Virus record (IMG/VR): IMGVR_UViG_3300045988_154391
Strand: one strand, 5' to 3'
DNA: 64,000 bases
Origin: a virus
Taxonomy: Duplodnaviria > Heunggongvirae > Uroviricota > Caudoviricetes
In this document: positions 18,805 to 39,320 of the stretch, in pieces
Layout of the letters: the number at the start of each line of letters is the position of its first letter
How positions within the stretch are numbered: position 1 is the stretch's first letter
Translations under genes and position numbers: made by a program
The notes under the pieces: model-generated
Seen by the model: the letters and a program-made list of their open reading frames with translations, nothing else
Told to the model about the DNA's origin: nothing
Database searches by the model: none

Positions 18805-18911
18805 TGTAGACATTTCATTTATCGATAATCACATTTTTTCTCTTCAGTGCCTGTGTGCTATACTCCTTCTTGATTGATTGGATGCGGAATACAAACCCGC
18901 TCTTTTGTGCA

Positions 18912-18938
18912 GCCTGGCTCCTTGCCAGGCTTTTTTTT
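18912..18938 (+). terminator. Plus-strand intrinsic terminator at the cra-like gene 3' end
   Basis: Stem GCCTGGC/GCCAGGC with loop TCCTT, followed by T8. Confidence 0.5.
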
Positions 18939-19248
18939 ATTTCATCATGGAAGCTGTTAACGCTTTGGACCTTGCTGAACTGATTGAAAGGGCATTGTTT
19001 ACCTTACCCAGGAGTTCGCCAAATTCCCCCATCACTCTAGTAAGCCCGCGCCGCGCTTCCTCCTCCGTTGCATTCATCACAAAATGTTCAGCACTCCGCA
19101 TGCTTTTAACGGGGAACGCAACAGATATCGAGTCGATATCAGGCATCCTATCGCTCAACTTTACGGTGACAATGACAGATGGTGACTGAATTTGAGAGCT
19201 TACAGACAGCACCACATATTTTCCGTCTATTTTGAATTCCTTCCGCAT
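18937..19248 (-). CDS. cra: Cra-like small protein downstream of cre
   Basis: 103-aa ORF 50 nt after the cre stop on the same strand, the position of P1 cra. Confidence 0.45.
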   Translation of the reverse strand: MRKEFKIDGKYVVLSVSSQIQSPSVIVTVKLSDRMPDIDSISVAFPVKSMRSAEHFVMNATEEEARRGLTRVMGEFGELLGKVNNALSISSARSKALTASMMK

Positions 19249-19264
19249 GTGTCACCATAAATAT

Positions 19265-19281
19265 CAAATAATTAGAGCAAT
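19265..19281 (-). promoter_or_regulatory. Degenerate C1-operator-like site between cre and cra-like gene
   Basis: CAAATAATTAGAGCAAT; ATTAGAGCAAT core conserved, three mismatches in the AT-rich arm. Confidence 0.4.
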
Positions 19282-19298
19282 CAAGCGCAAATGAACGG

Positions 19299-20330
19299 CT
19301 AATCGCCATCTTCCAGCAGGCGCACCATTGCCCCCGTTTCACTATCCAGATTACGGATATAGTTCATGACAATATTTACGTTGGTCCAGCCACCAGCTTG
19401 CATGATCTCCGGTATTGAAACTCCGGCGCGGGCCATATCTCGCGCGGCTCCGACACGGGCACTGTGTCCAGACCAAGCCAGGTACCTCTGGCCAGAGTCA
19501 TCCTTAGCCCCGTAAATCAATCGGTGAGTTGCTTCAAAAATCCCTTCCAGGGCGCGAGTTGATAGCTGGCTGGTGGATGATGGCGAGGCAACACCATTTT
19601 TTCTGACCCGGCAAAACAAGTAGTTATTCGGATCATCAGCCACACCAGAGACAGAAATCCATCGCTCGACCAGTTTAGTTACCCCCAGGCTAAGCGCCTT
19701 CTCTACACCTGCGGTGCTAACCAGCGTTTTCGTTCTGCCAATATGGATTAACATTCTCCCACCGTCAGTACGTGAGATATCTTTAACCCTGATCCTGGCA
19801 ATTTCGGCTATACGTAACAGGGTGTTATAAGCAATCCCCAGAAATGCCAGATTACGTATATCCTGGCAGCGATCGCTATTTTCCATGAGTGAACGAACCT
19901 GGTCGAAATCAGTGCGTTCGAACGCTAGTGCCTGTTTTGCACGTTCACCGGCATCAACGTTTTCTTTTCGGATCCGCCGCATGACCAGTGAAACAGCATT
20001 GCTGTCACTTGGTCGTGGCAGCCCGGACCGACGATGAAGCATGTTTAGCTGGCCCAAATGTTGCTGGATAGTTTTTACTGCCAGACCGCGCGCCTGAAGA
20101 TATAGAAGATAATCGCGAACATCTTCAGGTTCTGCGGGAAACCATTTCCGGTTATTCAACTTGCACCATGCCGCCCATGACCGGCAAACGGACAGAAGCA
20201 TTTTCCAGGTATGCTCAGAAAACGCCTGGCGATCCCTGAACATGTCCATCAGGTTCTTGCGAACCTCATCACTCGTTGCATCGACCGGTAATGCAGGCAA
20301 ATTTTGGTGTACGGTCAGTAAATTGGACAT
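19299..20330 (-). CDS. cre: Cre tyrosine recombinase
   Basis: 343-aa protein starting MSNLLTVHQNLPALPVDATSDEVRKNLMDMFRDRQAFSEHTWKMLLSVCRSWAAWCKLNNRKWFPAEPEDVRDYLLYLQARGL, essentially the P1 Cre sequence; loxP about 415 bp upstream. Confidence 0.97.
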   Translation of the reverse strand: MSNLLTVHQNLPALPVDATSDEVRKNLMDMFRDRQAFSEHTWKMLLSVCRSWAAWCKLNNRKWFPAEPEDVRDYLLYLQARGLAVKTIQQHLGQLNMLHRRSGLPRPSDSNAVSLVMRRIRKENVDAGERAKQALAFERTDFDQVRSLMENSDRCQDIRNLAFLGIAYNTLLRIAEIARIRVKDISRTDGGRMLIHIGRTKTLVSTAGVEKALSLGVTKLVERWISVSGVADDPNNYLFCRVRKNGVASPSSTSQLSTRALEGIFEATHRLIYGAKDDSGQRYLAWSGHSARVGAARDMARAGVSIPEIMQAGGWTNVNIVMNYIRNLDSETGAMVRLLEDGD

Positions 20331-20558
20331 TTAACACTCAGATAATGGTTTAAGTAAAGTGTACAGGATCGGCTCTGCCTTTACCTGTTTATGATTCTCG
20401 TCATAGAAACGCCAGCGACCGCGCGTGCGTTCTATTTTCTCTTCACCGCGCGATAATGACAGTTGACAACTATCACGATCAAACCCTTTTGCCCGCCAGT
20501 AACCACGGTTTTTCTCAAGCTCAAGATGAGTGGACACTTTAGCAGCTGAATATCCCAT
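20331..20558 (-). CDS. Small basic ORF (75 aa) immediately upstream of cre
   Basis: Stop TAA directly abuts the cre ATG; start preceded by GAGGTG and the recurrent CCAATCAATCA motif. May instead be non-coding cre promoter region. Confidence 0.3.
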   Translation of the reverse strand: MGYSAAKVSTHLELEKNRGYWRAKGFDRDSCQLSLSRGEEKIERTRGRWRFYDENHKQVKAEPILYTLLKPLSEC

Positions 20559-20747
20559 TTTTCACCTCTGATTGATTGGTGGTGCTAAGTGCGCTACGCG
20601 AAATCTGGAGCACTAACACTGCCAACATTTCGCAGATTTTACGTAGCGCAACCTTGATCAAATGATCAAGTGATCACTATTTGACCTGATAAGGTATTGA
20701 ACTGTATGGATTTACAGGTAAATTGATCATGTTCAATAACCCTTAAG

Positions 20748-20781
20748 ATAACTTCGTATAATGTATGCTATACGAAGTTAT
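20748..20781. other. loxP: loxP recombination site
   Basis: Exact 34-bp ATAACTTCGTATA-ATGTATGC-TATACGAAGTTAT. Confidence 0.97.
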
Positions 20782-20824
20782 TAGGTCTGAAGAGGAGTTT
20801 ACGTCCAGCTGCGCATAAAAATCA

Positions 20825-20841
20825 AGAATTATTAGAGCAAT
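20825..20841 (-). promoter_or_regulatory. C1 operator (Op99 cluster-like) between loxP and coi
   Basis: AGAATTATTAGAGCAAT, two mismatches to the operator reverse complement. Confidence 0.65.
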
Positions 20842-20907
20842 AAATTTTGAGAGAAAAATCCCACTCCACCAGCCAAAAACTGGATTGTTTTTCATAGTTG
20901 TTTGACA

Positions 20908-20924
20908 ATTGCTCTAATAAATTA
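20908..20924 (+). promoter_or_regulatory. C1 operator (Op99 cluster-like), inverted partner of 20825-20841
   Basis: ATTGCTCTAATAAATTA, one mismatch to consensus. Confidence 0.75.
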
Positions 20925-21162
20925 TAGTTTTGCCGCCGTTACGTAATACGACTTTGGATTCACTATTTAATGTGTCTTCAGCGTTGTAGAGCGGCTCAGA
21001 AGGAAATGAGCAAACAGGGAAACCTTATACAACGGCATTACAGCTATGCATTGCTCATCTTACACACAGCGCAATGTTGTTAGATTACCCCAGCATGGAT
21101 CATGGGTGAAACAGTAGGTCAGAGCTTCAGGCTCTGTGTTGTCAATACAGTGAGGCATAATT

Positions 21163-21372
21163 ATGGCTTTCATTCAACCAACCATCGACGACGTTAGACA
21201 TTGCTCTAACGCTTTATCTGTAGACCCTGCCGAAACCGACGCTGCCCGCGCCATTGCTGAACACTACTCAAAGATATCCAATCAGGAGTACCGCATCACC
21301 CAAGACGACCTGGATGACCTCACTGACACAATCGAATATCTCATGGCAACTAACCAGTTAGACTCACAATAA
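21163..21372 (+). CDS. coi: Coi, C1 inactivator
   Basis: 69-aa ORF directly upstream of c1 on the same strand, as in P1 immC. Confidence 0.85.
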   Translation: MAFIQPTIDDVRHCSNALSVDPAETDAARAIAEHYSKISNQEYRITQDDLDDLTDTIEYLMATNQLDSQ

Positions 21373-21482
21373 ATGCACTAATAAATCTATTATTTTTGTT
21401 TGATCCCTCTATAATATAGGTCAGTAATGACCGGTTTTCTCAGCCGGGCGTTATTGACCATGTCAATTCTGGAGGAGGATCA

Positions 21483-22334
21483 ATGATAAATTATGTCTAC
21501 GGCGAACAACTGTACCAGGAGTTCGTCAGCTTCAGGGATCTCTTTCTAAAAAAAGCTGTTGCACGCGCCCAACACGTTGATACAGCCAGCGACGGTCGTC
21601 CTGTACGCCCGGTTGTCGTTCTACCGTTCAAAGAAACTGACAGCATTCAGGCTGAAATTGATAAATGGACTTTAATGGCGCGGGAACTGGAACAGTACCC
21701 AGACCTCAATATCCCAAAGACTATTTTATATCCAGTGCCTAACATCCTTCGCGGTGTGCGCAAGGTTACAACTTATCAGACAGAAGCTGTGAACAGCGTC
21801 AACATGACCGCTGGCCGCATTATTCATCTGATTGATAAGGACATTCGCATCCAAAAAAGCGCGGGGATCAATGAGCACAGTGCGAAATACATAGAGAACC
21901 TGGAAGCAACAAAAGAGCTAATGAGGCAGTACCCGGAGGATGAAAAATTCCGTATGCGCGTACACGGCTTTAGCGAAACAATGCTGCGCGTCCACTACAT
22001 TTCCAGTAGCCCTAACTACAATGATGGTAAATCAGTTAGTTACCATGTGCCACTGTGTGGCGTGTTTATCTGCGATGAAACTCTCCGTGATGGAATTATC
22101 ATCAACGGTGAATTCGAAAAAGCAAAATTTAGCCTTTATGACTCCATAGAACCGATCATCTGCGACCGCTGGCCGCAAGCAAAAATATATCGCCTGGCAG
22201 ATATTGAAAATGTAAAAAAACAAATTGCCATCACTCGCGAAGAGAAAAAGGTTAAGTCAGCCGCATCAGTTACGCGCAGCCGTAAAACCAAGAAGGGGCA
22301 GCCAGTAAACGACAACCCCGAAAGCGCGCAATAA
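21483..22334 (+). CDS. c1: C1 repressor
   Basis: 283-aa protein starting MINYVYGEQLYQEFVSFRDLFLKKAVARAQHVD, matching P1 C1; strong GGAGGAGG SD. Confidence 0.95.
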   Translation: MINYVYGEQLYQEFVSFRDLFLKKAVARAQHVDTASDGRPVRPVVVLPFKETDSIQAEIDKWTLMARELEQYPDLNIPKTILYPVPNILRGVRKVTTYQTEAVNSVNMTAGRIIHLIDKDIRIQKSAGINEHSAKYIENLEATKELMRQYPEDEKFRMRVHGFSETMLRVHYISSSPNYNDGKSVSYHVPLCGVFICDETLRDGIIINGEFEKAKFSLYDSIEPIICDRWPQAKIYRLADIENVKKQIAITREEKKVKSAASVTRSRKTKKGQPVNDNPESAQ

Positions 22335-22338
22335 ATTA

Positions 22339-22365
22339 TGCCCGGCATCAACCGGGCATTCTTCC
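22339..22365. terminator. Hairpin terminator between convergent c1 and antirepressor-like gene
   Basis: Stem TGCCCGG/CCGGGCA with T-rich flanks on both strands. Confidence 0.5.
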
Positions 22366-22366
22366 A

Positions 22367-23482
22367 TTATTCAGCTGCCACCGGTTTTAACAAGCCAGCA
22401 TCGAGCAGTTTACGCGTCAACCACTGCTGGCCTTTACCCGTTAATTGAGGCGTCAACCGTATCTGGTAGCCATCTTCATCATCCAGCACCACTTCTTTCA
22501 CCGTGAAATACCCCGCGTTGATGTACTGCTGGAACGGCACATTTTTACGTCCACCGGACGCTATCAGGATGCCGTTCTCCCGTAACCAGACAAACAGCGC
22601 GTTTTGCTTAAGTCCAACAACCTTTGCAAAATTCCCAATCAGGATCCCTTTAGCTACTGATACCCGGTCGGCAAAATCGACTTTAGGAGCGGCGGCCACC
22701 AGCTGCTGATTTAGCTGGTGGGCTTTCTGTTCCAGAAGCTGCTTTTGTTCAGCCAGTTCGGCAGCCAGGCGCAGAGCTTCTGGAAGCGTCTGGGGGATTG
22801 CAACCGGTTGCTGTTCTTTTTGCCGGAAGTAGCTGTCTTCCAGTTTTTCAAAGAATGCCCATGCCTGATCGGTTTCGAGCATTTTAGCGTGGCGGGCTGC
22901 GCCGCGTTCCGTCCAGAGGATGAGTGAGCGGGCTTTAGGAGAGATAGGATTTTGTGAGTTACTTAAAGTCACCCGCAAATTGTTCAAATCATCTCCAATA
23001 ACTTTATAGAAATGCTTGCCTTCACAAAAACGTTCAGCATTACGGGAAAAGTTCTTCTTGATGTTATCCGCATCTGTCCCATACCCCTTAGCAAGGATCT
23101 TAGTTGTCACTACACGCACTCCCTGCCACTCTAGAACGGGAATTTCATCCGGCTGACTTTGAACAACCACCAGTTCTGATTCCTGAACTAAAGGTGTATT
23201 AATTTTTTCAGATTTAACGTTAGTAGCTTTCATTCTGTGTGCCTCCTTGCGTGTTTCGGCTGCGACGGTTGCGTAATTCAGATGCCCCTGTTCGAGCAGG
23301 TATTCACGGATATCAGACAGCAGGATACGGTGAACAGCGTTCTTGTCCTTTCTCCGGTAAAGTTGTTTGGTGATCATGAAGTAGTTGGCAATAACGCCTG
23401 GTATATCCCTGGTACTGATACAGGCAGTGTGCTGTTCAATTGCCTCGATCATCTCTTCACGGGTGACTAATGACGTTCTCAT
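22367..23482 (-). CDS. Antirepressor-like protein (ORF6N-like N-terminal and KilA-C-like C-terminal domains), 371 aa
   Basis: ORF6N-like region (VVTTKILAKGYGTDADNIKKNFSRNAERFCEGKHFYKV ... SPKARSLILWTERGAARHAKML) and KilAC-like C-terminus (NFAKVVGLKQNALFVWLRENGIL ... YINAGYFTVKEV). Strong internal start at 23233 (AAGGAGG) is an alternative. Confidence 0.7.
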   Translation of the reverse strand: MRTSLVTREEMIEAIEQHTACISTRDIPGVIANYFMITKQLYRRKDKNAVHRILLSDIREYLLEQGHLNYATVAAETRKEAHRMKATNVKSEKINTPLVQESELVVVQSQPDEIPVLEWQGVRVVTTKILAKGYGTDADNIKKNFSRNAERFCEGKHFYKVIGDDLNNLRVTLSNSQNPISPKARSLILWTERGAARHAKMLETDQAWAFFEKLEDSYFRQKEQQPVAIPQTLPEALRLAAELAEQKQLLEQKAHQLNQQLVAAAPKVDFADRVSVAKGILIGNFAKVVGLKQNALFVWLRENGILIASGGRKNVPFQQYINAGYFTVKEVVLDDEDGYQIRLTPQLTGKGQQWLTRKLLDAGLLKPVAAE

Positions 23483-23700
23483 AGTCCCTCCTGAGCAGAA
23501 GCGTTAACAGGGAGGCACCAGTAACTGAGAGAATTGCGTGAATCAGTGGAAAAACGGGCAGAGAAAATACATGGGGCGTCAGGAAGCTGAGAGCGGGCCT
23601 CATCTTCTGTCGGTGCAATAACGAAGTGATAGTGACGTTTTTGGCAGGAGTAAAAGCGCCAGATAAATTCAGGATGAGTTGGGGTAGGGATAGTAGCCAT
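23479..23700 (-). CDS. Small ORF (73 aa) translationally coupled to the antirepressor-like gene
   Basis: ATG at 23700 preceded by AAGGAGG; its stop overlaps the downstream start as ATGA. Confidence 0.3.
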   Translation of the reverse strand: MATIPTPTHPEFIWRFYSCQKRHYHFVIAPTEDEARSQLPDAPCIFSARFSTDSRNSLSYWCLPVNASAQEGL

Positions 23701-24018
23701 ATTGGCAGCCTCCTTAGACGTTGGTATGTAACCACCGCAGAAGAGACCAATCTTGCTGGCGGTGGACTGTACGGAGTTGGCCTTACTGGCGTCCAAGGTA
23801 ACCAGCCTACCCGAAGGTAGCCCCATACAGCCCACCATTGTAGAGGTGTGCGTGTACGCCGATACAAAAAAAGACGCGAGCGGCGTCTGTATCGCCTTAG
23901 ACTTAAGCGGGAGGCCAATCCCGGCACCCGTTTTAATGAGGTGCCTGATAAGCATAAACCGAAAATGCCTCAAGGCGCAAGAGGTCAGGTTCAATGTAAC
24001 ATCGGCAGTTAAAAAACA

Positions 24019-24035
24019 CAATTTATTAGAGCAAA
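24019..24035 (-). promoter_or_regulatory. C1-operator-like site just downstream of pacB
   Basis: CAATTTATTAGAGCAAA, two mismatches, both terminal; lies upstream of the antirepressor-like operon. Confidence 0.5.
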
Positions 24036-24038
24036 TAT

Positions 24039-25523
24039 TCATTCATTAAGCCATGCCAGAGCTTCATCAACCTGCGCTTCGTCTTCGACGCTAAGCACTT
24101 CATCCTGGGGAACATAATCCGCCAGCATAGCGAAACAATATGTATCCCAATGGTCTGGTGAGTGCAGGTTGAGTTTTTTCTTCATATCCTCCTTACTCAT
24201 CACCTTCCATTGACCTGCGGAGTTAATCCCTACAGGGATTTTCGACGCTTCCTCAATAGTTTCATTACCCTTATCCAGTCTCATACGACCAGATTTTACG
24301 GCCTCTGCGGCTTGAACGTTGGCATAAGCACGTTTATCAAAGTACAGGCTCTTATCTTCACGGCTATGCATCTTTTTACCCCAGCGTATACGCTGTACGG
24401 TAATACCATAATACTCGTACATCAGATCCGCCGTTGCTTTACCCAGCCCATCACCGTCTATCGCTATGGTGATATTTGGAAATCGCTCAGGATTACATTC
24501 TGCGAAAATTTTGGCGGCAAGCTGCGTTTCTGTAACGTCTGTGTATTCCAGCATTCGATAGTTGATTACACGGCGTTTATTTCTCTGGCCGGACACCATC
24601 ATGATATTGATAACGGACTTATCCCGTCCCGTACCACCAGCAACGTCCACACATGCAAGCCAGCCCCATCCTTTGGCAATCTTGACTTTCCGCCGCGTCG
24701 CACGTTCAACCTCATCACGTCCAAGAAGGAAGCCATCCTGTGATTTAGGGAATAGTCCGCGTACCTTAATCATGTACATAGGGTTATCACGCCCGCCGTA
24801 CTCCGCCAGCTTCATTTTGATAAATGCTGGCGTTACCAGCGGTGATTCCTCACTGTTAAGCGTGATCGCCGTATAAACGCCATCAGGGTTACCAGGACGC
24901 TTGGCCAGTTTATGGTGAGTATCGTAGAAATAGCCGCTTGGGCGTGTAGGCTGTGACAGTAATAAGATGCGGTTATCCTGTCCGGTAAGAGCACCGGTGA
25001 TGATACCGAAAGCTCTATCACTGACACCGGAGGCTTCATCGATAATATACAGAAGATGATCTGCGTGTTCACCGGCGAGAGCTTCTTCACTTCCCAGACG
25101 AAAGCCCTTCGGTACTACAGTCCATACACCTTTACCAGTAACCTCATAGAAAGCGGTTTCTGTCAGAACAAAATAATCAGCAAGCCATGGAAAACGGCTG
25201 GTGGCAGTAGCCCAGTTTATCTTGATGTACTTGAATATACCGGTCATTACCTGCTGAATTTTGTTCGCAACGATAATGGCGCGGGCACCGGGATACATGA
25301 TTATGAACAACATGATCATGATAGAAGTCATGTCTGATTTCCCGGTACCGTGACCAGACGAAACAGATGTCTTGCTACCCTGTTCCTGCACAGACTCAAT
25401 AATCAGATCCTGCTGCCAGGTAGGTGTTTTGCCGAACAAAACATCAGCGGCAGCAATCCAGTCATAACGATATAGCGCCACCAGCTCGCGCCAACGTGGA
25501 TCCGTTACGCAACTTCTGGCCAT
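24039..25523 (-). CDS. pacB: Terminase large subunit PacB
   Basis: 494-aa protein with terminase ATPase/nuclease organisation; start overlaps the pacA stop. Confidence 0.9.
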
Positions 25524-26716
25524 TAATCATCATCCCCGTATAGCTTGCGGGTAACTTCTTCGTCTTCCTCCTCGTCTTCGTCCAGGTCTTGTTCCAGCCA
25601 TGGGTCGTTTGATACACCTTCAGTATCAACATCTCCATAACCGCCTGTATCAACGATATCGGCGATTTCTTCCCTACGCTGCTCAATCCACAATGCGGCA
25701 TCGGCGCGGCGGTTGGCGGCCCGTTCTCGCGCAACTTTGTCCAGATCTTCAAGAGAAGGGCCACCGACGGCTGTTTGCCTTTCCTCATCATCGGTATTGG
25801 TCTTAGGAGCACGCAGATCGGCTTTGATTTGCTCCAGCATCAGGGGCGGCACTTTTCCGCCATGCGCCTCGATGAATTCAGCTGCTTCCAGCACTGACCA
25901 GTTATTTTCACGCTTTCGTTCGTATGCCAGCTTAACAATGCCAGCTTGCCCCATAGATAAAGCGTGCTTTTCCGCCTCCCGGCTTTCTTTTCGATAGTTA
26001 TTCCGAATGCTGTAAATGGTGTTGATCAGGCTGCTTATCTGCGCGGAACAGCTGTTTAGCATGCTCGCGATACGATATTCAGGCGGAGTCCCTTCATCAT
26101 CGTCTTTTTGCTGATCGCGCATTTCCTGCACCAGACGAATACACGTATCCCTGGCGTTCTCCAGCATAAGGAGATGAGAAAGAGACTTTTCCAGAAGAGT
26201 GGTTTCCAGAACATCGGCCCCGGACCGACGCAACATAGCGCGCGCGGCCTTCCGCGCTTCAACGTTATCTATCAGGTAATCGCCAGCTTCGAATTCAAAG
26301 CGTTCACCATCATCATCCAGGGTGTCGCGTTCCAGGCGATCACGTAAGGTCCGGTGGGCGCGGGTGATCACGTCATGATCATCAGAACGATCATTTATGC
26401 GCTTATTTTGGCGCTTCGCATTCTCGACTGCGGCACTGACAACGGCATTAACCCTTTGTTTTTCCGCTATTTCAGCCGCAATGTGATCACCTGCATGTTG
26501 ATCATTAGAGTGATCAATGATCATGCTTTTTAGTGGCTTCCTGACTGGCTTATTTGGCTTGCGGCTGTCCGCTGTCCTGGTGTCTTCTTTGAAGGCACGG
26601 AGATAACGACGTGCAGTATTAGGGTTAAGATTAAACTCGGCGGCATACTGTGCGATGGTGTAACCACCATCTCGCGCCAGGCGAGCAAAATTCTTCTTGT
26701 GATCGTCCCAGGTCAC
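25523..26716 (-). CDS. pacA: Terminase small subunit PacA (contains pac site)
   Basis: 397-aa ORF with GTG start and acidic C-terminus; the TGATCA hexamer clusters of pac lie inside it. Confidence 0.9.
26365..26523. other. pac packaging site: seven TGATCA-type hexamers in two clusters
   Basis: Cluster 1: TGATCA at 26365-26370 and 26376-26381, CGATCA at 26388-26393. Cluster 2: TGATCA at 26484, 26499, 26511, 26518. Matches the described 3+4 architecture of P1 pac. Confidence 0.75.
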
Positions 26717-26801
26717 TTATGCTTCCTTTCGTAAAAACTCTTTTTGACGCGAGGGTAACGAAAGTCACATGTCAAAAGGCCCGGAACGGGCAAGCAATCA
26801 A

Positions 26802-27254
26802 TCAGATACGTGCGGATGTGGCATTACCGTAATGACGGTGCTGACGGGCCACCTTATTGAAAAGTTGACGCGCCATTACCCAAGGCTGGTGCTCCCGGCG
26901 TTCCTTTTCGTCCTGCGTCATATAGAGTTCGTTCTGGAGTTTTTCATCAAACCGGCGCGGAGCGCGGCTACGGCGAAAGAATTCAGGATTCAGAGAGTGG
27001 ATCTGAAATCTACGTGGGCGTGTACTGTCATCAATCAAAACAGACGAATACTTAGACACAGCGATAGCCTTTAAGCGCAGATAAACATCGCGCTTATCGA
27101 CATCCAGATGCGGGTATTCCTTTTCAAGAATTGCTGCGAGTTCTTTCGCTGATAGAAGAGATTTAGTGCGGATCATGTAATCCGCAATCTCGTACGATGT
27201 TATTCGTGAGTGATTTATTTCCATGAAGTGGCGTCCCTGCCAGTTAAGTAACAT
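26802..27254 (-). CDS. lpa: Lpa, late promoter activator
   Basis: 150-aa ORF with SD AGGTGACAGG, immediately upstream of pacA; C1 operator about 70 nt upstream. Confidence 0.85.
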   Translation of the reverse strand: MLLNWQGRHFMEINHSRITSYEIADYMIRTKSLLSAKELAAILEKEYPHLDVDKRDVYLRLKAIAVSKYSSVLIDDSTRPRRFQIHSLNPEFFRRSRAPRRFDEKLQNELYMTQDEKERREHQPWVMARQLFNKVARQHRHYGNATSARI

Positions 27255-27323
27255 CCTGTCACCTACTGATTAGCCCATGTCAACTAATCAACGTGGAATA
27301 TAATACCCTCGATTAAAGAAATG

Positions 27324-27340
27324 GCAATACATTAGAGCAA
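27324..27340 (-). promoter_or_regulatory. C1 operator upstream of lpa
   Basis: CAATACATTAGAGCAAT; ATTAGAGCAAT core conserved. Confidence 0.6.
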
Positions 27341-27342
27341 TT

Positions 27343-28386: not shown

Positions 28387-28413
28387 ATCACACCTTTAAT
28401 CACTGATTGGGCT

Positions 28414-31966: not shown

Positions 31967-31972
31967 ATTAAT

Positions 31973-32266
31973 TTAAGGTTCAGACCAGTTATCTTCAATA
32001 GCAATGCTTAATCTTTGTAGCCATTCTGCTAATTTCAGCATTGCTTCTCTTTCGCTTAAACCACACGGAAAATCATCAAGCGATATTGTTGGCTTGAAGT
32101 TTCCCAAATTATCCATTTCAACGGTCAGATTTTGCTCCAGAACGGTATTTCTTACGCGGCTATTGTGCCGAAGCAAATATACTGAACGTGATTTATTGGT
32201 TTTGTGGTCGAACGTATATTCGGTAAGTATCATCTGACTTCCGCCATGATTATTACCGCGCCACAT
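31973..32266 (-). CDS. Hypothetical protein
   Basis: ORF in the accessory block; start ambiguous. Confidence 0.45.
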   Translation of the reverse strand: MWRGNNHGGSQMILTEYTFDHKTNKSRSVYLLRHNSRVRNTVLEQNLTVEMDNLGNFKPTISLDDFPCGLSEREAMLKLAEWLQRLSIAIEDNWSEP

Positions 32267-32289
32267 AATTACTCCGTGTTAATTGAAAT

Positions 32290-32571: not shown

Positions 32572-32851
32572 GACCTTCCTCCTTTGGCTTGTGAATTTGT
32601 ATCGTCATGCCGCTTTGAGTGGTGACTACAACGACAGAACCAGGCTGAAGACTGTTAAGATTGAATGCTTCGTAAAACGAAGCCAAGGCCAGCGCTTTTT
32701 TATTCTTTCGGTTCCACCAACGCCATCCATTGCTACAGGCTACACTGACAATCCACTGTCCACTCCTGTAAGCCATATAAAACCAGATGAGCAAAACCTG
32801 AATGAATGCTATCCAGTCAATAATCGTATATTTCGCGAAGGAGACCATCAA
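32564..32851 (-). CDS. Small membrane protein, paralog A
   Basis: Shares the segment KKALALASFYEAFNLNSLQPGS with the 34449-34772 product (RQKALEAFYDAFELSRIEPGTT). Confidence 0.5.
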   Translation of the reverse strand: MMVSFAKYTIIDWIAFIQVLLIWFYMAYRSGQWIVSVACSNGWRWWNRKNKKALALASFYEAFNLNSLQPGSVVVVTTQSGMTIQIHKPKEEGRG

Positions 32852-33420
32852 TTAACCTCCTGCGGCGGTTCCGGTAGAGGCATCCAGTACAAGGCGTTCC
32901 CTAACCACGATAAAGTGCCGTCGCTCAACTCCACGTATTCCCCTTGTACCTGTCCTGCCATATACTCGCCGTGCTTTGAATAAATTAAAATCCAATCATC
33001 TTGAGCGGGCATTCGCTCACTACAGCTTATCCAACCATCCGGAGTTACCGGATAGTTGCCCGACAGCTCGTTCAACTTGTAAGTTTGGCTTACAGGTTCG
33101 GCTTCCAGTTCTGCAATGCGCTTCTCTGCAGCTTCCAGCTCAACGCGCAGCTTCCCTACCGTTAGCGCAATTTCCTCGTTCTCCTGGTCGCGGCGTTTGA
33201 TGTATTGCTGGTTTCTTTCCCGTTCATCCAGCAGCGCCAGCACGGTTTCTGGTCCGGTCAGAAATTTGAAGGCGTTGAGCGCATCAATATCCACACCGTA
33301 ATCCTTAAGTTCCTGTTCACTTAACAAATCATCATCAACTGGCAACATTAACAGGCGTTCCATTGCCGGAATTGCACGTTCTGCCGCCTCACGCAGTGCC
33401 TGATAGTTAATTTTGGTCAT
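32848..33420 (-). CDS. Ead/Ea22-like protein, paralog 1
   Basis: N-terminal NYQALREAAERAIP motif shared with the 34736-35611 product; central coiled coil (IAELEAE). Confidence 0.6.
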   Translation of the reverse strand: MTKINYQALREAAERAIPAMERLLMLPVDDDLLSEQELKDYGVDIDALNAFKFLTGPETVLALLDERERNQQYIKRRDQENEEIALTVGKLRVELEAAEKRIAELEAEPVSQTYKLNELSGNYPVTPDGWISCSERMPAQDDWILIYSKHGEYMAGQVQGEYVELSDGTLSWLGNALYWMPLPEPPQEVN

Positions 33421-33421
33421 A

Positions 33422-33721
33422 TCACATCCTCCTGAAGCCGTTGCATTTACGTAAAAAATCGCAGATATAGCCCTTCATTTTTTCGTGCCAATCTCGATCA
33501 TTCCCATTGCACCAACCATCAGGTGGAGTCCAGTTTTCTATCAGAGCAGCCATTTTCTTTGCTTTCGCCGGAGTAGCTGTTGCGGTATCGCAGTAATGAC
33601 GAGTGTCAACCAACGTATCCATACCATCGATATCAAGTACGCAAAACCATGTGTGATTCGGCATTTCAACAGATGGTATTTGTTGCCCACGTCGACGTTT
33701 ATCAATAAGACATACAGTCAC
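33422..33721 (-). CDS. Hypothetical Cys/Trp-rich protein (99 aa)
   Basis: ORF tightly packed between two Ead-like paralogs. Confidence 0.45.
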   Translation of the reverse strand: MTVCLIDKRRRGQQIPSVEMPNHTWFCVLDIDGMDTLVDTRHYCDTATATPAKAKKMAALIENWTPPDGWCNGNDRDWHEKMKGYICDFLRKCNGFRRM

Positions 33722-34452
33722 TGGTTGCCTCCTTTGCGAAGCTGGGCAGCAAAGTCAACTAACCACTCAGTCATTTCAACCTTCCCTACCAGGTCTGAAC
33801 CAGGGTGCATACAGCAATCACTCTGCGCCGCTTTGAAATCCTTATACTCATATTCTTGGGCCACCAGATTTTTTGCAGCTTCTATAGCAGCATCCACGCC
33901 CTGCGCCCGCACTTCAGCCAGGAAAGCATCGGTGGCTGGCATATTTCCTGTTGCCTTCATGGCCTCCAAAATAACCAGAACGCCATCTCGCCCAACCACC
34001 TCAGCGATAACCTCAGTGTTGTCGCCAACAACATCGCAGAATGCCTGAACTGCCTTACGAGCCAGCTCATTCTCCACTGCCAGCGCCGTGCGATTACCCT
34101 CCAGCTCTGCAATGCGCTGTTTTGCGGCATCCAGTTCAATCGACAATTTTTCCAACTGCTCTTGATGCTTCTTGTATTCCTGATATGCGTGCCAAGACTG
34201 ACCTTTGCGCACACTATCAGTGATATCAGTAATCTGTTCTGGTGTTAGCGTGGTCAGTGGCTGTGATGGGAAAATAAGCACTTTCCCGGAATCCCAATCA
34301 AAACCAGCGTGAATTGACTGAACCTCAACTGAAGGTGTTGAACCAATGCTGCCAGGCGAATGAACAACGATTGTTACATCCATATCGCGACGATGGCTGT
34401 GGTTGTTGGACAAAATACGATTCACCAACTCAGAAAATTTGGAAAATTTCAT
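33718..34452 (-). CDS. Ead/Ea22-like protein, paralog 2
   Basis: C-terminal ATDAFLAEVRAQGVDAAIEAAKN shared with paralog 3 (ATDAFLSEIRAEARNEGI); coiled coil IAELEGN. Confidence 0.6.
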   Translation of the reverse strand: MKFSKFSELVNRILSNNHSHRRDMDVTIVVHSPGSIGSTPSVEVQSIHAGFDWDSGKVLIFPSQPLTTLTPEQITDITDSVRKGQSWHAYQEYKKHQEQLEKLSIELDAAKQRIAELEGNRTALAVENELARKAVQAFCDVVGDNTEVIAEVVGRDGVLVILEAMKATGNMPATDAFLAEVRAQGVDAAIEAAKNLVAQEYEYKDFKAAQSDCCMHPGSDLVGKVEMTEWLVDFAAQLRKGGNQ

Positions 34453-34772
34453 GCTGATTCCCCTTTCTCTGCTCTCTCCTGTCGGAACATCACTATCATC
34501 AGGTCGCCTTTTGTCGCTATCCTGGCTGTTGTACCTGGTTCAATGCGGCTAAGCTCAAATGCGTCATAGAACGCTTCTAATGCCTTCTGGCGTAGTTCCT
34601 GTTTGCGCCGTTTTTTCCACTGTTTTAGGAAAATGGAACCCAGCCATCGCCATGTGCGGGACATGATGTAAAGCCAACCGAGAAGTGCCAGACCGGTATT
34701 TAGGAGCGTATCGATCGTTATTGTCGTGTCGATATTCACTGGCTGCTTCCTTTGCGAATCTGTTCCGCCCAT
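34449..34772 (-). CDS. Small membrane protein, paralog B
   Basis: Paralog of the 32564-32851 product; one hydrophobic helix. Confidence 0.5.
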   Translation of the reverse strand: MGGTDSQRKQPVNIDTTITIDTLLNTGLALLGWLYIMSRTWRWLGSIFLKQWKKRRKQELRQKALEAFYDAFELSRIEPGTTARIATKGDLMIVMFRQERAEKGESA

Positions 34773-35611
34773 TCTTCAAGGGATTTCTCCGCATATTCAC
34801 CAGACAGGCCATCAATCGGATGCGCTTCATTAGCCAACTCTTCTTTCGCTGACAAAATCATGCGTGTAACGTCGAAAACTTCACGCAAAGACTTATTGAT
34901 AAATCCGTGATTGAACGCAGCAGCAAGACGGCTGGCGGTATAGTTAATCCCCTCGTTGCGTGCTTCCGCACGAATTTCAGACAGGAAAGCATCGGTGGCT
35001 GGGGTTTCGACATTAGGTCGAAGCTCATAATCACAAACTCTTTCAATCCATGGTGATACTCTGTCGCATTTCCTCTTCTTGCGTTCACCGACCTTGGTTG
35101 CCTGCTGAATAATTACCCCCCAGCAAATGCTTTCGACCTCTTCGCTCCATCCATCGCAAGCATCGCCTCTATAGTCGTCAATTGCAGCCTCAGCAGCAGC
35201 GATAGCCTCCTCAGCAGTTTTGTGACACTCGAAACTAAATTCAGAGCCATATGAGAAATACATAGCCCCGGCCTTCAGCGCCGCATTCTCCGCTGCCAGC
35301 GCCGCGAGATTAGTCTCAAGCTCTGCAATTCGACACATAGCATCAATATTTGTGTCCTCCAGGCGCTTAATTTCACCAAGCAGCTCCAGTGCAACCTTTG
35401 GGTTGAACGCGGCAACATAACGAGCGTTGTTCTCTGCATTTTTCTGTCCATCAAAGCCGGTCCATTTGATAACGTCTTCACATCGTTCATCACCGGGCGT
35501 GTGCACCGCATAAGTACCAGTATCCGTCGAAATAAATGCGACCCATTCGTCTGGTGTTGCCTTTTCTGCCGCCTCACGCAGTACCTGATAGTCAATTGTC
35601 ATTCTCGCCAT
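34736..35611 (-). CDS. Ead/Ea22-like protein, paralog 3
   Basis: N-terminal DYQVLREAAEKATP and C-terminal ATDAFLSEIRAEA motifs; coiled coil IAELETN. Confidence 0.6.
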   Translation of the reverse strand: MARMTIDYQVLREAAEKATPDEWVAFISTDTGTYAVHTPGDERCEDVIKWTGFDGQKNAENNARYVAAFNPKVALELLGEIKRLEDTNIDAMCRIAELETNLAALAAENAALKAGAMYFSYGSEFSFECHKTAEEAIAAAEAAIDDYRGDACDGWSEEVESICWGVIIQQATKVGERKKRKCDRVSPWIERVCDYELRPNVETPATDAFLSEIRAEARNEGINYTASRLAAAFNHGFINKSLREVFDVTRMILSAKEELANEAHPIDGLSGEYAEKSLEEWAEQIRKGSSQ

Positions 35612-36243
35612 CCTTCACAGTTGTAATCACTACAGCCTTCAAAATCATATGGGCTGTACTGCCAGGTTATTTTTCCGCAATGCGGACAATTCCAACGCAC
35701 CTTCCCGCTTCGCGACTTCTTTCTTCTGTTTTGCTTTTTCAACCAGTCAGGCATGACCAAACCTGCGCCCTGAACCATTGTTCTGCGGTTAAAGTTATTG
35801 ATATTGAACGTCCGGCGCTTTGCTGCATCAGCAATGGAAAATGGCAACCAAACTATTCCTGGTTCGTTTTTGTTGGCGACGCTAAAGATGGTCGCTTTAC
35901 TGAAGTCATCTGTTGGCAATCCACCGTGTTGAAGCCAGTAAACATCGTTGCCGTTCCAGCTACCTTTTTTGTAGGCCACATACGCAGTGCAATCTGACTC
36001 AATCAGGCTTTCTGTAGGGATGTACTGGCAATCAACGTGCCACACAGCCATTGCATCCACGCTATCAGCGCAAACAGGCTGATCGATATCTCGTCCACAA
36101 TTCCAGGCTTTTTGGGCTGCTTCCAGCGTGTAAACATGAGCGCGATCGATATCAGAACTGTAACCATTGCCGTTATGGCAATGGAATGAGGCGTTATTAC
36201 CCACAGTTTCACGCAAGCACATCATGTAAAAGCGGTTATTCAC
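35599..36243 (-). CDS. Hypothetical protein with C-terminal zinc-ribbon (CPHCG ... C..C)
   Basis: 214-aa ORF in the accessory block. Confidence 0.55.
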   Translation of the reverse strand: MNNRFYMMCLRETVGNNASFHCHNGNGYSSDIDRAHVYTLEAAQKAWNCGRDIDQPVCADSVDAMAVWHVDCQYIPTESLIESDCTAYVAYKKGSWNGNDVYWLQHGGLPTDDFSKATIFSVANKNEPGIVWLPFSIADAAKRRTFNINNFNRRTMVQGAGLVMPDWLKKQNRRKKSRSGKVRWNCPHCGKITWQYSPYDFEGCSDYNCEGWRE

Positions 36244-36451
36244 TGGATGCCTCCCAGCAAATTTGTCTTATATAAGAACTGTTAACGCGCTTTACTTTCC
36301 CGTCGAACTCCAGTTTCTTTAGACGACGCAAAACGTATGCCGTTTTGAGTGTGCGATATTTATCCCTAAGCCAGTTGGTCACGACGTAAGTCATACAGCG
36401 CCCGTGTTCTTCCAACACCCGAACTATTTCTTCGTCGGTTGGCTTGCTCAT
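36236..36451 (-). CDS. Small hypothetical protein (71 aa)
   Basis: Overlapping-stop arrangement within the operon. Confidence 0.45.
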   Translation of the reverse strand: MSKPTDEEIVRVLEEHGRCMTYVVTNWLRDKYRTLKTAYVLRRLKKLEFDGKVKRVNSSYIRQICWEASSE

Positions 36452-36669
36452 TTTGTCGCTCCTTCAGCTTTCTCTACTTTCGCTGCCATGATTTCCAGCT
36501 TTTGTGCTGCCGATGCCGCTAACCTGTGAAATTCATCATCTGTTTCAACTGGAATTGGTACAAACCTGACACCAATTTGAGCAAGGCTATGCGCCATTTC
36601 GAGACTTGCTCTTAACTCTGCTGGGGATGCTTTATTCAGGCCGACTTCCTCACAAATAACTGATTGCAT
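36448..36669 (-). CDS. Small hypothetical protein (73 aa)
   Basis: Overlapping-stop arrangement within the operon. Confidence 0.45.
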   Translation of the reverse strand: MQSVICEEVGLNKASPAELRASLEMAHSLAQIGVRFVPIPVETDDEFHRLAASAAQKLEIMAAKVEKAEGATK

Positions 36670-36678
36670 ACGCTCGCC

Positions 36679-37284
36679 CTACTGAATACGCTCAAACTCG
36701 ATTACCCAAACCCAGGGATTAGCACTCCAGCTTTCTTCGCCGTAGATGGATTCCCACAGGCGCTGGAACGCAACCTTGGCCATTGCGAAATCCCCCTTGG
36801 GAGTAAGGAATGTTCCCGGGTGATCAGGAAGCAAACTTCCAGCAGGCGGAACGCCCTCATCCCTTGCATCGCATTCGCTGATATCGTTCAACCGCTCAAC
36901 GCGCACGTTGGTAATTTCCAGAAGAATGCGCGATGCCCAGCGCGGCATGTGAATTGATGGCGTCCACTTTTCTGATACTGGTTTATTACAAACCTCGACC
37001 GGAACCCGGTGCGTTTGTTCTGTCCAGGAGTTACGCACGCTTGCGCGATAAACCAGCGTTGCGACGTCCGTCGCTTTGCCATGTACCCGGTAGGTTTCGC
37101 GAACCCAAATACGATCGCCCGGTTGACCATATGGACAATGCTTGGCAAGCAACTCTGCGGCCACTGCCCGTCCATAGAATTTTTCTTCAACAATCCTGCG
37201 AGTCTGTGTTTTATTCCCGCCAAGAATTGCCCGGACCATCTCATCGTTAAAAATCATGCCGCGCTCTTTCACTTCGCCTTTCAT
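36679..37284 (-). CDS. ASCH-domain protein (201 aa)
   Basis: Pattern TQTRRIV ... GDRIWVRETY ... HMPRWASRILLEITNVRVERL is typical of ASCH domains. Confidence 0.6.
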   Translation of the reverse strand: MKGEVKERGMIFNDEMVRAILGGNKTQTRRIVEEKFYGRAVAAELLAKHCPYGQPGDRIWVRETYRVHGKATDVATLVYRASVRNSWTEQTHRVPVEVCNKPVSEKWTPSIHMPRWASRILLEITNVRVERLNDISECDARDEGVPPAGSLLPDHPGTFLTPKGDFAMAKVAFQRLWESIYGEESWSANPWVWVIEFERIQ

Positions 37285-37462
37285 GCATCCCCCTTACCCA
37301 TGTGCGACGATGCCGCCAAAAGTGATAGAGAACAGCCAGAAATAGATCGCGGCCATAATGATTTTGAATGCCGTGTTCATATTTTCATCTCCTGTGATTG
37401 ATTGGATACATGCCGCGCCTTGCGGCATGTTTTTATTTTCACTTTCTCTGTTTTAAAAATCA

Positions 37463-37479
37463 ATATTTATTAGAGCAAT
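37463..37479 (-). promoter_or_regulatory. C1 operator at the 3' end of pap
   Basis: ATATTTATTAGAGCAAT, one mismatch; overlaps the pap stop codon. Confidence 0.7.
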
Positions 37480-37985
37480 TATTGTTGATGGAGAAGCGCG
37501 TTTTCATACTCCCTGACCATTAACGTAAGCACGCCGTGCCTCCTGAAAACACGCGCCACTTCAATCTTATCTTCCAGCGCGAACGCGATTTTACTTAGAC
37601 CAATTTTCTTAAGGAGATCAATCTTTGCTGGGCCGTCATTTCTGTCATCGGTGGCAGGACGCATAGATAGCAAAGGCTCAGCCCCGTTTGTTACGTACTT
37701 CCGCAGCCAGGCTCGTGTTTTATCCCTTGCGATCTCACAGCGCCCGGTTACAAACCAGACCGTGTAAACGTTAAATAACTGGCGCACAATATCAATAACT
37801 GGAGTTATGGGAGTATCAGTGTCACAGGCGAGATTAAACTCGTTCCAGTCCTTTGTTAATGCACCTTTACCTGGTGGCGGAAGCAAATGCAGTCTGTCTT
37901 CAGTTGCCTCTGATATTGTTCCATCAATATCAACTATGACGATATACGGACGTTCCTGGTGTGCGTGTTTATTGAAAATACTCAA
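37479..37985 (-). CDS. pap: HAD-superfamily phosphatase (Pap-like)
   Basis: DxDGT motif (IVIVDIDGTISE) near the N-terminus. Confidence 0.7.
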   Translation of the reverse strand: MSIFNKHAHQERPYIVIVDIDGTISEATEDRLHLLPPPGKGALTKDWNEFNLACDTDTPITPVIDIVRQLFNVYTVWFVTGRCEIARDKTRAWLRKYVTNGAEPLLSMRPATDDRNDGPAKIDLLKKIGLSKIAFALEDKIEVARVFRRHGVLTLMVREYENALLHQQ

Positions 37986-38057
37986 ATGCCCTCCTCATTG
38001 GACGAAAAAAATGCTGGTGGGCGCACTCCACCAGCATTAAAAGTGACACTGTAACTG

Positions 38058-39320
38058 TCAGCGAACGTAAATAGTGCCGCCGTTCTCTTTTTCCCATGCA
38101 TCGCTACGTGCATAGCAAACATCGAGAAGTCTTCTTGCCGCTGTTTCCTCTAAACCCAATTCGACAACCAACTGCTCATGACGGCGGGTAACCACATCAA
38201 ACAGGGTATGCAGCCCTTTAGCTGCCAGATCATCAATAAATTCCGGTTCGAACGGCAGCTCTGCCTCTGCCAACATAACCTCTTGCGCCCACTCAACTCG
38301 ACGGACCAGTTCCGGGCGGCGGCTTTCCATCTCTTTACAGATCAATTCATGGAAGAACTCTACCCAACCTTCCGGCTGGAACTCGCGGAAAATGGCCAAC
38401 GGCTGGAAGTTTGGCATCAACCATTCGTTGATCCGGATATCAATGGCATAGCCCATGTCGCAGCAGAACTGATAAGCAAAGTCCAGCTTAGAAACGATAT
38501 AAGGACGCTCGTTATTGAACTCTTTAGGCGATGAGATCCCATAAGCCAGGAGGCGCGGGAAGAAGGAGATTTGCCCTAACGTCGGATGAAGTTTGCTTGC
38601 AGGGAAACGGCGCTCAGTAATGCCATACATTTCCTTCTTGAGCGTCGCAAATTTGGCATTCTCATTAACCAGCGCGGTAACCTCTGCTTTTTTATTAGCA
38701 AATGCCACGCGCGCTTCGCTTGCATCTTTAATAGTTTTTTTGAGCTGTTGGTTAAGGTCGGCGACCTGCTTACGCAGTTCCTGTCGCTCGCTTTTAGCTT
38801 TGTTATAGCGTTTCTCAAGGTTAAAAGGATCAAGTTTCATGATCTCTTTATATTGAGATTTTAGCGTTGAAATCTGTGAGTTCCGCAGTTCAACCATCGC
38901 GGTCATTTCATTGAGTTTTGTTTCCAGCTCAATGCTTATACGTTCGGCATTATCAGCACGCTGGTTGGCGTCATGCGTCGCATCGTCGATCGCGTCCTGT
39001 TGCTGGCGTTTCAAATGTTCAATTTGCAGCTGAAGCTCTTCAATTTCTTTACCCTTCAGACCGAGATCCAACTGCATATTTTCAGCTGCATCGACCAGGG
39101 AGTTATGGCTATCAGCTTCTGCGTTATAAACATCAATAAGCTGTGCGTGAAGCATCTCCGCTGACTGAACCGCATTATCAAAAAAACGTGCTGTGAGGTC
39201 ATCACAACTAACGCGGCGTTGCGCGGCCCGGATGTTCTGGATAATGGCCGGGATACCGGCATTCAGGACATCAGGGATAGATACATTTTCGATTGATTGG
39301 TTTTGTGCTGAAGTGCTCAT
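38058..39320 (-). CDS. Coiled-coil protein (420 aa)
   Basis: Long heptad-rich central region. Confidence 0.6.
   Translation of the reverse strand: MSTSAQNQSIENVSIPDVLNAGIPAIIQNIRAAQRRVSCDDLTARFFDNAVQSAEMLHAQLIDVYNAEADSHNSLVDAAENMQLDLGLKGKEIEELQLQIEHLKRQQQDAIDDATHDANQRADNAERISIELETKLNEMTAMVELRNSQISTLKSQYKEIMKLDPFNLEKRYNKAKSERQELRKQVADLNQQLKKTIKDASEARVAFANKKAEVTALVNENAKFATLKKEMYGITERRFPASKLHPTLGQISFFPRLLAYGISSPKEFNNERPYIVSKLDFAYQFCCDMGYAIDIRINEWLMPNFQPLAIFREFQPEGWVEFFHELICKEMESRRPELVRRVEWAQEVMLAEAELPFEPEFIDDLAAKGLHTLFDVVTRRHEQLVVELGLEETAARRLLDVCYARSDAWEKENGGTIYVR

Follow-up and report, generated by a model that had tools for sequence, protein, structure and literature searches.

The small RNAs (sRNAs) RybB, OmrA/OmrB and MicA are about 60–90 nt long, are made from their own promoters, and pair with several mRNAs at or near the ribosome-binding site; the known targets of OmrA are bound through its 5′ part. 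Phages P1 and P7 encode a small RNA of another kind, c4 (RF01695, immI), which RNase P releases from a longer transcript and which pairs through the loops of a folded structure. Prophage sRNAs such as DicF and those of the AsxR/AgvB type mainly target host mRNAs or host sRNAs. Here we analyze a 64,000-nt stretch of tailed-phage DNA (IMG/VR record IMGVR_UViG_3300045988_154391; hereafter the window), in which an 11-nt motif, TGATTGATTGG, recurs beside genes of a P1-like element. Sequence comparison leads us to consider it likely that this motif marks a phage-encoded, trans-acting base-pairing sRNA together with its target sites on phage messages.

Positions 18000–40000 of the window are P1-like phage-plasmid DNA (megablast; P1, P7, SJ46 and RCS47 at 95–98% identity), the P1 plus strand corresponding to the window minus strand and lox lying near 20766. 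The exact motif occurs on the plus strand at 18871–18881, 20569–20579 and 37395–37405, as an original prediction made from the letters had reported, and its 10/11 copy near 39291 (CGATTGATTGG) is placed at 39290–39300. Read in the sense of the genes, all four copies are CCAATCAATC(A/G). The prediction had put three copies just upstream of a Shine-Dalgarno sequence (SD). This is true of the copies before cra and before a small open reading frame (ORF) of 28 rather than 29 codons, each of which has a hairpin just upstream and an SD just downstream. It does not hold for the 18871 copy, which is followed by an SD-like AGAAGGAG but by no start codon, and whose position, upstream of Oref (a C1 operator) and of the ref promoters, is outside the ref leader to which it had been assigned. 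Nor does the 39290 copy precede a ribosome-binding site: it lies inside the pmgS ORF. A related string, CCAATCAGTGA, does exist before pdcB, but at about 28400–28410 instead of 28421, and the resemblance is weak (7 nt shared).

A predicted RNA gene in the c8–ref spacer

Read on the plus strand, the surroundings of the 18871 copy have the anatomy of a small RNA gene: TGtgcTATACT, 6 nt, TGATTGATTGG, a small hairpin, a U-rich linker, a terminator, and eight U residues (Table 1). This copy most plausibly represents the 5′ seed of a putative sRNA gene that runs from promoter to terminator, and which would supply the complementary small RNA that the original prediction had proposed to look for. The sequence is antisense to the c8–ref spacer and abuts the c8 stop codon; its P1 equivalent is at about 1827–1895 on the minus strand. 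In the predicted fold (−23.2 kcal/mol, z = −3.24) the seed (nt 1–9) is unpaired and two hairpins follow. A terminator scan calls the Rho-independent terminator (18911–18931 plus T8) on the plus strand only and not on the c8 strand. The predicted promoter and terminator lie on the same strand without an ORF, as expected at the sequence level of an independent transcription unit. The model also accounts for two features of the spacer: the 18871 copy would have no ORF behind it because it is the start of a plus-strand RNA gene, and the neighboring GAGTATAnCACA would be conserved because it is the sRNA −10 element read on the other strand. The SD-like AGAAGGAG is the complement of the stretch between the −10 element and the start of the plus-strand RNA.

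P1 carries the same motif copies and is too close to the window to be informative. We examined eight further lineages, namely the Salmonella plasmid pCVMN1543 and the loci L092, L099, L097, L091, L088, L090 and L103, whose C1 repressors are 54–80% identical to that of the window (for L103, Cre is 64% identical). C1 homologues of 54–79% identity were collected and their contigs compared; a Cre-based scan of species-representative genomes returned only three loci and added a Pantoea element, and a C1-based search of viral contigs returned only near-identical relatives of P1. Even in pCVMN1543, with a C1 80% identical, merely 57 nt of DNA around cra can be aligned by BLAST.

Across these lineages the −10 element and the seed of the predicted gene are conserved. 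TGnTATA(C/G)T stands 6–7 nt upstream of GATTG in 9/9 lineages, with one match per locus. The broader pattern TGnTATAnT, 3–9 nt, GATTG has exactly one match in each of 11 sources (the window, P1 and nine loci), always in the c8–ref spacer, in the same orientation and with a constant gap of 6–7 nt; when the pattern is slightly relaxed, L103 gives the same single place. In L088, a promoter scan finds TTCACT-16-TATAGT on the sRNA strand, a sigma-70-type promoter with TG that ends 6 nt before the seed.

The body of the gene is kept in a different manner. The versions of seven other lineages give the same predicted shape (z = −2.3 to −3.9) from hairpin-1 sequences that are unrelated between clades; a conserved single-stranded seed is joined to a remainder preserved in structure and not in sequence, as in the sRNA class. 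The terminators of pCVMN1543 and L088 are likewise called on the sRNA strand only. The terminator helix is 96.9% paired across lineages and includes two compensatory pairs, and in 5/8 lineages it contains a G-U pair, for which the opposite strand would have a C-A mismatch. In six of the eight lineages the sRNA strand folds more stably than its complement, with a difference of up to 14 kcal/mol. Among P1-group loci, the gene is retained in 60 of the 61 in which the region is present, and two stem substitutions there are C-to-U changes that give G-U on the sRNA strand.

A separate feature brackets the −10 element in some relatives. An inverted repeat lies there in pCVMN1543 (15790–15830) and at the equivalent places in L091, L092, L097 and L099 (GCGAATGA..TCATTCGC, CGGATG..CATCCG, GCGAACG..CGTTCGC), with compensatory changes between lineages; P1 and the window lack it. 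It could be the operator of a dimeric repressor at the sRNA promoter, or the leader hairpin of the following sense-strand gene.

Predicted targets and their co-variation with the seed

The remaining copies, at cra, the small ORF and pmgS, behave as targets of a regulatory RNA: they are accessible (mostly unpaired by prediction, P(unpaired) 0.67–0.77), lie near translation-initiation regions, are conserved, and co-vary with the complementary sequence. For these three copies the original proposal of a shared translational control element or regulatory RNA target stands; the 18871 copy had been misread as one more target.

At cra, the site forms 11 contiguous Watson-Crick pairs with nt 1–11 of the predicted sRNA (mean P(unpaired) 0.67) and is invariant in 63 P1-group loci. 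A cra-type site follows the same leader hairpin in pCVMN1543 (there downstream of lox), L092, L099, L088, L090 and L103, while the first gene differs. The site before the small ORF, which has a C1 operator and a 5′ hairpin upstream of it, pairs over 16 contiguous positions (13 of them Watson-Crick) with the cognate sRNA, as against 8–10 with the sRNAs of other lineages. For nt 1–17 of the sRNA it is the best trans site on both strands of the window (−23.0 kcal/mol), where the only better match is the sRNA's own antisense. Its equivalent in pCVMN1543 precedes a homologous small ORF behind a different hairpin. The pmgS site forms 10–11 pairs, and both its codons (N-Q-S-I) and its nucleotides are the same in pCVMN1543, with different flanks.

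The pmgS site of P1 and the window, AAAACCAAUCAAUCG (39290–39304), forms 14 bp with a pCVMN1543-type sRNA versus 10–11 bp with its own, and this better pairing suggests that the pmgS module has been exchanged between lineages. The 28-codon ORF (37290–37373) recurs at 98.8% identity over 84 nt in many IncF and other plasmids, downstream of hsdR, and the P1 annotation notes the similarity of this stretch to sequence downstream of hsd loci. In the single example inspected (NZ_CP021690.1), IS1 adjoins the ORF, which therefore lacks its first codons and the leader with the motif.

The motif is also found at the same places in relatives that have diverged widely. In pCVMN1543 it occurs in the cra-type leader, before the small ORF, in the spacer downstream of c8, in pmgS, and at a further unannotated gene behind a C1 operator. 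The core CAATCAATCA occupies the same places in all eight lineages, whose spacers have diverged beyond the reach of BLAST. Its orientation is always sense relative to the gene that follows, and its usual distance from the start codon is 9–15 nt, although at ref in L091 and L092 it abuts the start codon directly (0 nt); some lineages have it in front of new genes, parM-like and marR-like ones among them. In the complete pCVMN1543 genome and the 20-kb loci, no conserved trans anti-motif was found other than the c8–ref copy. In complete P1, Watson-Crick matches to the seed lie beside the start codons of cra, the small ORF, pmgS and also repA (9 nt); a scan that tolerated G-U pairs was too noisy, and Watson-Crick matches alone were retained. 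The repA match, AUGAAUCAAUCAU at P1 62620–62628, outside the window, pairs with sRNA nt 1–9. It is absent from pCVMN1543, which has a different Rep, and could be either chance or an extra target linking the sRNA to plasmid copy control.

Could the copies be chance repeats without function? The chance argument of the original prediction (0.03 expected) was too generous and does not hold on its own: a pre-chosen 11-mer is expected 0.09 times in the window, and the bare count is not significant over all 11-mers because about 17 different ones reach three copies by chance in Markov-1 simulations. The window holds 87 such words, the excess coming mostly from C1 operators and Chi-like words (the commonest are C1-operator words, ATTGCTCTAAT, at 11 sites, and Chi-like words with GCTGGTGG or CCACCAGC). 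Other copies with one mismatch lie at 32189, 26794 (minus) and 48243 (minus), and the first and last of these, both within ORFs, look like chance. Three copies of some 11-mer are therefore unremarkable, and the signal is carried by position, strand and conservation. Repeats without function are scarcely credible given that the copies keep the same relative positions and orientation where spacers no longer align, and given their co-variation with the seed.

That co-variation is concerted within each genome. All sites of a genome share one base immediately ahead of the core, and this base differs by lineage (it is C for the P1 type, A for L088 and T for L090), and L097 and L091 have a single repeat in the motif. 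Such concerted variants led us to suspect a factor encoded by the element itself. We scored contiguous pairing anchored at sRNA nt 1–3 between 18 translation-initiation regions from eight genomes and the eight sRNAs. The cognate assignment sums to 210 with G-U pairs allowed and to 198 with Watson-Crick pairs only, each the maximum of all 40,320 relabelings, and the fraction of relabelings that reach this maximum is 2 × 10−5. The P1-type seed ..UUGG pairs with CCAA.. at its targets; the L088 seed ..UUGU pairs with ACAA.. at 3/3 targets, 11 bp each, A being paired with U; the L090 seed ..UUGAUUAG pairs with (A)AUCAAUCAAUCA at two targets (triple repeat; 12 and 13 bp); and the L091 seed GAUUGGUUG pairs with CAACCAAUC at ref through 9 bp, a compensatory change. 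In pCVMN1543, three of four targets (AAACCAAUCAAUC or GAACCAAUCAAUC) form 13 bp with ..UUGGUUU, and in L092 two targets form 12 and 14 bp with ..UUGGCUCG. Cognate pairing extends past the shared core in a lineage-specific way, as in the 16 bp at the small ORF of the window, and similarity between copies extends only on the side that would lie inside the RNA. Complementary sites at the translation-initiation regions of unlinked genes, co-varying with a seed, are characteristic of the sRNA class.

A protein or the ribosome might instead read all copies, that at 18871 included, as cis-sites with no sRNA involved, for example as a translational enhancer, a standby site, or the site of an RNA-binding protein or nuclease acting on early messages. 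The motif is G-free, C/A-rich and abuts SDs, several of its carriers have a weak SD or none (ref of L091 and L092, which reads CCAAUCAAUCAUG, and the first gene of pCVMN1543), and a co-evolving protein would also fit the concerted lineage variants. We nevertheless regard this explanation as unlikely. It leaves unexplained why a fixed −10 at 6–7 nt, a structure-conserved hairpin and a U-tailed terminator lie opposite just one copy, why that copy has no start codon after it in P1, and why similarity between copies is one-sided, toward the RNA interior. As for the ribosome, complementarity of the motif to 16S/23S rRNA is matched by 25% of shuffled motifs, and an enhancer role through base pairing with 16S, 23S or 5S rRNA was rejected, the motif doing no better than its shuffles. 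The one-strand gene anatomy tips the balance toward RNA pairing over protein.

If pairing is involved, the RNA could be one that the host supplies. Nucleotides 3–11 of the predicted sRNA (AUUGAUUGG; 18873–18881) are identical to nt 10–18, in the 5′ part, of E. coli OmrA, whose sequence we verified from MG1655, and this segment of OmrA is the exact complement of CCAAUCAAU. The motif would then be an OmrA-binding site that wires phage genes to the EnvZ-OmpR/sigma-S response; at cra, OmrA would form 11 contiguous pairs plus CCCA:UGGG at the start codon (−23.5 kcal/mol). We find this improbable, since the lineage variants (the A of L088, the single repeat of L097 and L091) follow the phage's own copy and not the host RNA. 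L088 has the A variant, yet its insertion sequence (IS) element is 99.5% identical to Klebsiella/Raoultella plasmid copies and points to a host from these genera; OmrA would leave the conserved 3′ CA of the motif unpaired; and a literature search gave no link between OmrA and P1. Through this seed similarity OmrA and the phage sRNA might nonetheless share targets, or OmrA might cross-regulate phage sites.

A second sequence in the element could itself provide the seed. The lpa stop codon is overlapped on the sense strand by UGAUUGAUUGC, followed by a terminator-like hairpin and UUUU, and the number of (TGAT)n units there varies among P1-group isolates (1, 2 or 6), so the regulator could be the 3′ end of lpa mRNA or an sRNA cut from it. 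This we hold to be very improbable: the tract is absent from L088, L090, L091 and L092 and partial in pCVMN1543 (AUUGAUUG), all of which keep the target motifs; its flanks do not co-vary; and the local fold is not significant (z = −0.9). The tract may be an additional, P1-clade-specific carrier of the same seed, and not the main regulator. Among 67 P1-group loci the tract (within 26774–26804, minus, together with its hairpin) has two units in 65, one in L019 and six in L037, with a point change in L053; (TGAT)3 puts a stop codon in all three frames.

Several other candidates were tried and rejected. The −22 box of Lpa-dependent late promoters (AAGTGACTT) is unlike the motif in all eight annotated P1 late promoters, and the 17-bp C1 operator (ATTGCTCTAATAAATTT) lies near some copies as a separate sequence. 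The motif or its variants appear to misfit the consensus sequences for IHF, DnaA, Fur and RNase P (hairpin plus CCA), for MazF/ToxN-type cleavage, and for Hfq A-R-N, CsrA GGA and NusA-KH. Phase variation by (CAAT)n slippage would have to act on the 1–3 units present at targets, and slippage is seen at the lpa stop codon only. A mosaic-junction or recombination linker would fit the downstream genes, which do differ by lineage, but leaves the gene-like anatomy at 18871 unexplained.

Table 1. Coordinates of predicted RNA features, target sites and annotated genes in the window
Feature	Position	Strand	Basis or remark
Predicted extended −10 promoter of the sRNA	18856–18864	+	TG 18856–57, TATACT 18859–64; no good −35
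Predicted sRNA, ~68 nt	18871–18939	+	fold, terminator, conservation
Predicted sRNA seed UGAUUGAUUGG	18871–18881	+	first copy of the original prediction, on the proposed functional strand
Predicted sRNA hairpin 1	~18880–18903	+	
Predicted sRNA U-rich linker	18904–18910	+	
Predicted sRNA terminator stem-loop	18911–18931	+	
Predicted sRNA U8 tail	18932–18939	+	
Predicted target 1 CCAAUCAAUCA, cra 5′ untranslated region	20569–20579	−	1 nt before SD GAGGUG, 10 nt before cra AUG
Predicted target 2 UGUAUCCAAUCAAUCA, leader of 28-aa ORF	37395–37410	−	directly before SD CAGGAG; motif copy 14 nt before ATG
Predicted target 3 CCAAUCAAUCG, inside pmgS	39290–39300	−	ORF nt +21 to +31
Second copy of seed sequence UGAUUGAUUGC (not a target), over lpa stop codon	26794–26804	−	followed by hairpin GCCCGuuCCGGGC and UUUU
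ref	18129–18689	−	P1 annotation and ORF lists
c8	18937–19248	−	P1 annotation and ORF lists
cre	19299–20330	−	P1 annotation and ORF lists
cra	20331–20558	−	P1 annotation and ORF lists; ORF abuts cre
c1	21483–22334	+	
lpa	26802–27254	−	P1 annotation and ORF lists
28-aa hydrophobic ORF, precedes pmgT	37294–37380	−	
pmgS	38058–39320	−	P1 annotation and ORF lists
Three tRNA genes, as in P1	51040–51112, 52959–53031, 53037–53109	−	

The window also carries a module between c1 and pacB (22367–24042), where P1 has no insertion. On its minus strand lie a C4-type RNA (23755–23842, 75.9 bits) and an isrK-like RNA (23867–23944, 60.8 bits), and it has ORFs of 371 and 187 aa; in related plasmids an antirepressor and Icd-like proteins are annotated at this place. 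The C4-type RNA has no complement of the motif in its sequence, and the isrK-like RNA was rejected as a partner as well.

Proposed mode of action

From these features we infer an RNA of about 68 nt, transcribed from the window plus strand (the P1 minus strand) in the c8–ref spacer and ending at the Rho-independent terminator. It would start about 7 nt after the extended −10, at 18871 or 18872, and its first 10–11 nt, (U)GAUUGAUUGG, would be single-stranded and serve as the seed, pairing with CCAAUCAAUCA plus a few lineage-specific flanking bases. Two of the proposed sites are immediately 5′ of the SDs of cra, the first gene of the cra-cre-c8 operon, and of the 28-codon ORF that heads the pmgT operon; the third is early in pmgS. 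The duplex would end 1–3 nt from the SD, inside the 30S footprint; in L091 and L092 it would cover the start codon of ref. Because the duplex sits within the 30S footprint, repression of translation initiation is the most likely outcome, favored within the model over activation roughly two to one, with mRNA decay as a probable secondary effect. Since cra abuts cre, repression could spread to the latter by translational coupling. The sRNA is also fully complementary to c8 read-through transcripts and may act on them in cis. Help from Hfq is probable, the U8 tail and the U-rich linker being compatible with it. In a preprinted transcriptome of P1vir under Δhfq conditions, the under-induction reported is broad and includes cra, cre and ref, an effect that is not specific.

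A number of observations weigh against the proposed sRNA or its direction of action. The promoter has no convincing −35, and a simple promoter scan called it neither in the window nor in pCVMN1543. The two strands fold with equal energy in P1 and L097. What the co-variation test measures is how similar the 18871-type copy is to the other copies; by itself it would be compatible with a protein that recognizes every copy and co-evolves with them, and its lineages are related, not phylogenetically independent. Target motifs of pCVMN1543-type lineages keep their last A, which would not pair. The pmgS site is the weakest of the three targets, as protein-level (codon) conservation could contribute to it. 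The duplexes leave the SD uncovered, so the direction of regulation is uncertain, and at cra a weak 4-bp stem formed with the SD overlaps the motif, making activation conceivable.

A more speculative extension, which we hold to be possible but rather doubtful, places the sRNA in P1-type immunity as a post-transcriptional layer. It would be constitutive in the prophage, silencing leaky C1-controlled and maintenance messages, and would work as a threshold filter, swamped once C1 is inactivated. With seed and targets co-evolving in each lineage, the RNAs would also define lineage-specific 'immunity types', as c4 does for P1 and P7, and the c8 'establishment of lysogeny' locus, which is assigned only putatively to the ORF adjoining the sRNA, could be the sRNA itself. 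If this were so, the silenced operons would be cra-cre, small ORF-pmgT, pmgS and possibly repA in P1, and in relatives the silenced genes would include parM-like and marR-like genes and ref.

P1 is among the most studied and most used phages (Cre-lox, generalized transduction, P1-derived PAC vectors), and a conserved sRNA whose multiple targets include the cre operon along with two 'morphogenetic' operons would give it a new regulatory layer. The same would apply to P1-like phage-plasmids, a large family now common in E. coli, Salmonella and Klebsiella, many members of which carry resistance genes. Cre cassettes with the native cra leader retain the predicted repressor site. The prediction is directly testable, and the co-variation between lineages supplies ready designs for compensatory mutations.

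Relation to described RNAs

The sRNA locus matches no described family in the collections we searched. Against Rfam, the window and seven relatives give nothing at threshold at this locus, the best score being SorX (22.6 bits versus a gathering score of 46.6). In 18 phage records, including the very detailed P1 annotation, the place is labeled c8 or left blank, and P1 lists no RNA gene in the c8–ref spacer. The searchable literature yielded no paper with the sRNA sequence, with the motif in a relevant context, or with a P1 sRNA at this place. For the proteins, Pfam and NCBIfam gave no match for Cra, C8 or the small ORF, and the 28-aa peptide matches no family model.

The strongest predicted target may recall type I toxin–antitoxin pairs whose antitoxin RNA is encoded separately, such as TisB/IstR-1 and ShoB/OhsC, being the initiation region of a 28-aa, very hydrophobic ORF that would pair over 16 bp; unlike in those pairs, the RNA gene is 18.5 kb from the ORF and has other predicted targets besides. 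Prophage sRNAs such as DicF of Qin and AsxR/AgvB and related RNAs of enterohemorrhagic E. coli are, like the predicted RNA, horizontally acquired, short, terminator-ended and base-pairing. The conserved, co-varying targets found here, by a search that covered phage elements, are phage genes.

Like c4 of P1 and P7, the predicted sRNA is a small RNA of the phage whose messages it would bind, with short complementary boxes at ribosome-binding sites (a2/b2 before icd, for c4, which blocks translation there) and lineage-specific pairing. By contrast, c4 is annotated as acting on its own operon, whereas the predicted sRNA has sites in at least three separate operons, and has its own promoter and terminator and a linear 5′ seed. 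The C4 model finds no match at 18700–19100 even at E values up to 10; its sole match in the window is at 23755–23842.

In its design the predicted RNA comes closest to RybB, OmrA/OmrB and MicA, with which it shares a size within about 60–90 nt, an own promoter, a seed that is single-stranded and placed right at the 5′ end, a hairpin inside the molecule, a U-rich stretch, a Rho-independent terminator that closes in a long U tail, and several mRNA targets at or near ribosome-binding sites. It differs from them in being encoded by a phage-plasmid and in having the phage's own operons as predicted targets, and its binding to Hfq is putative. The OmrA-B model of Rfam gives no match in the window or at the locus, and the chromosomal aas-galR context of omrA is not that of a phage-plasmid. 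As a computational prediction, then, the motif would mark a regulator plus its regulon and not a bare cis-motif, and the sRNA would work like the 5′-seed, Hfq-dependent sRNAs and like c4, but it belongs to neither family.

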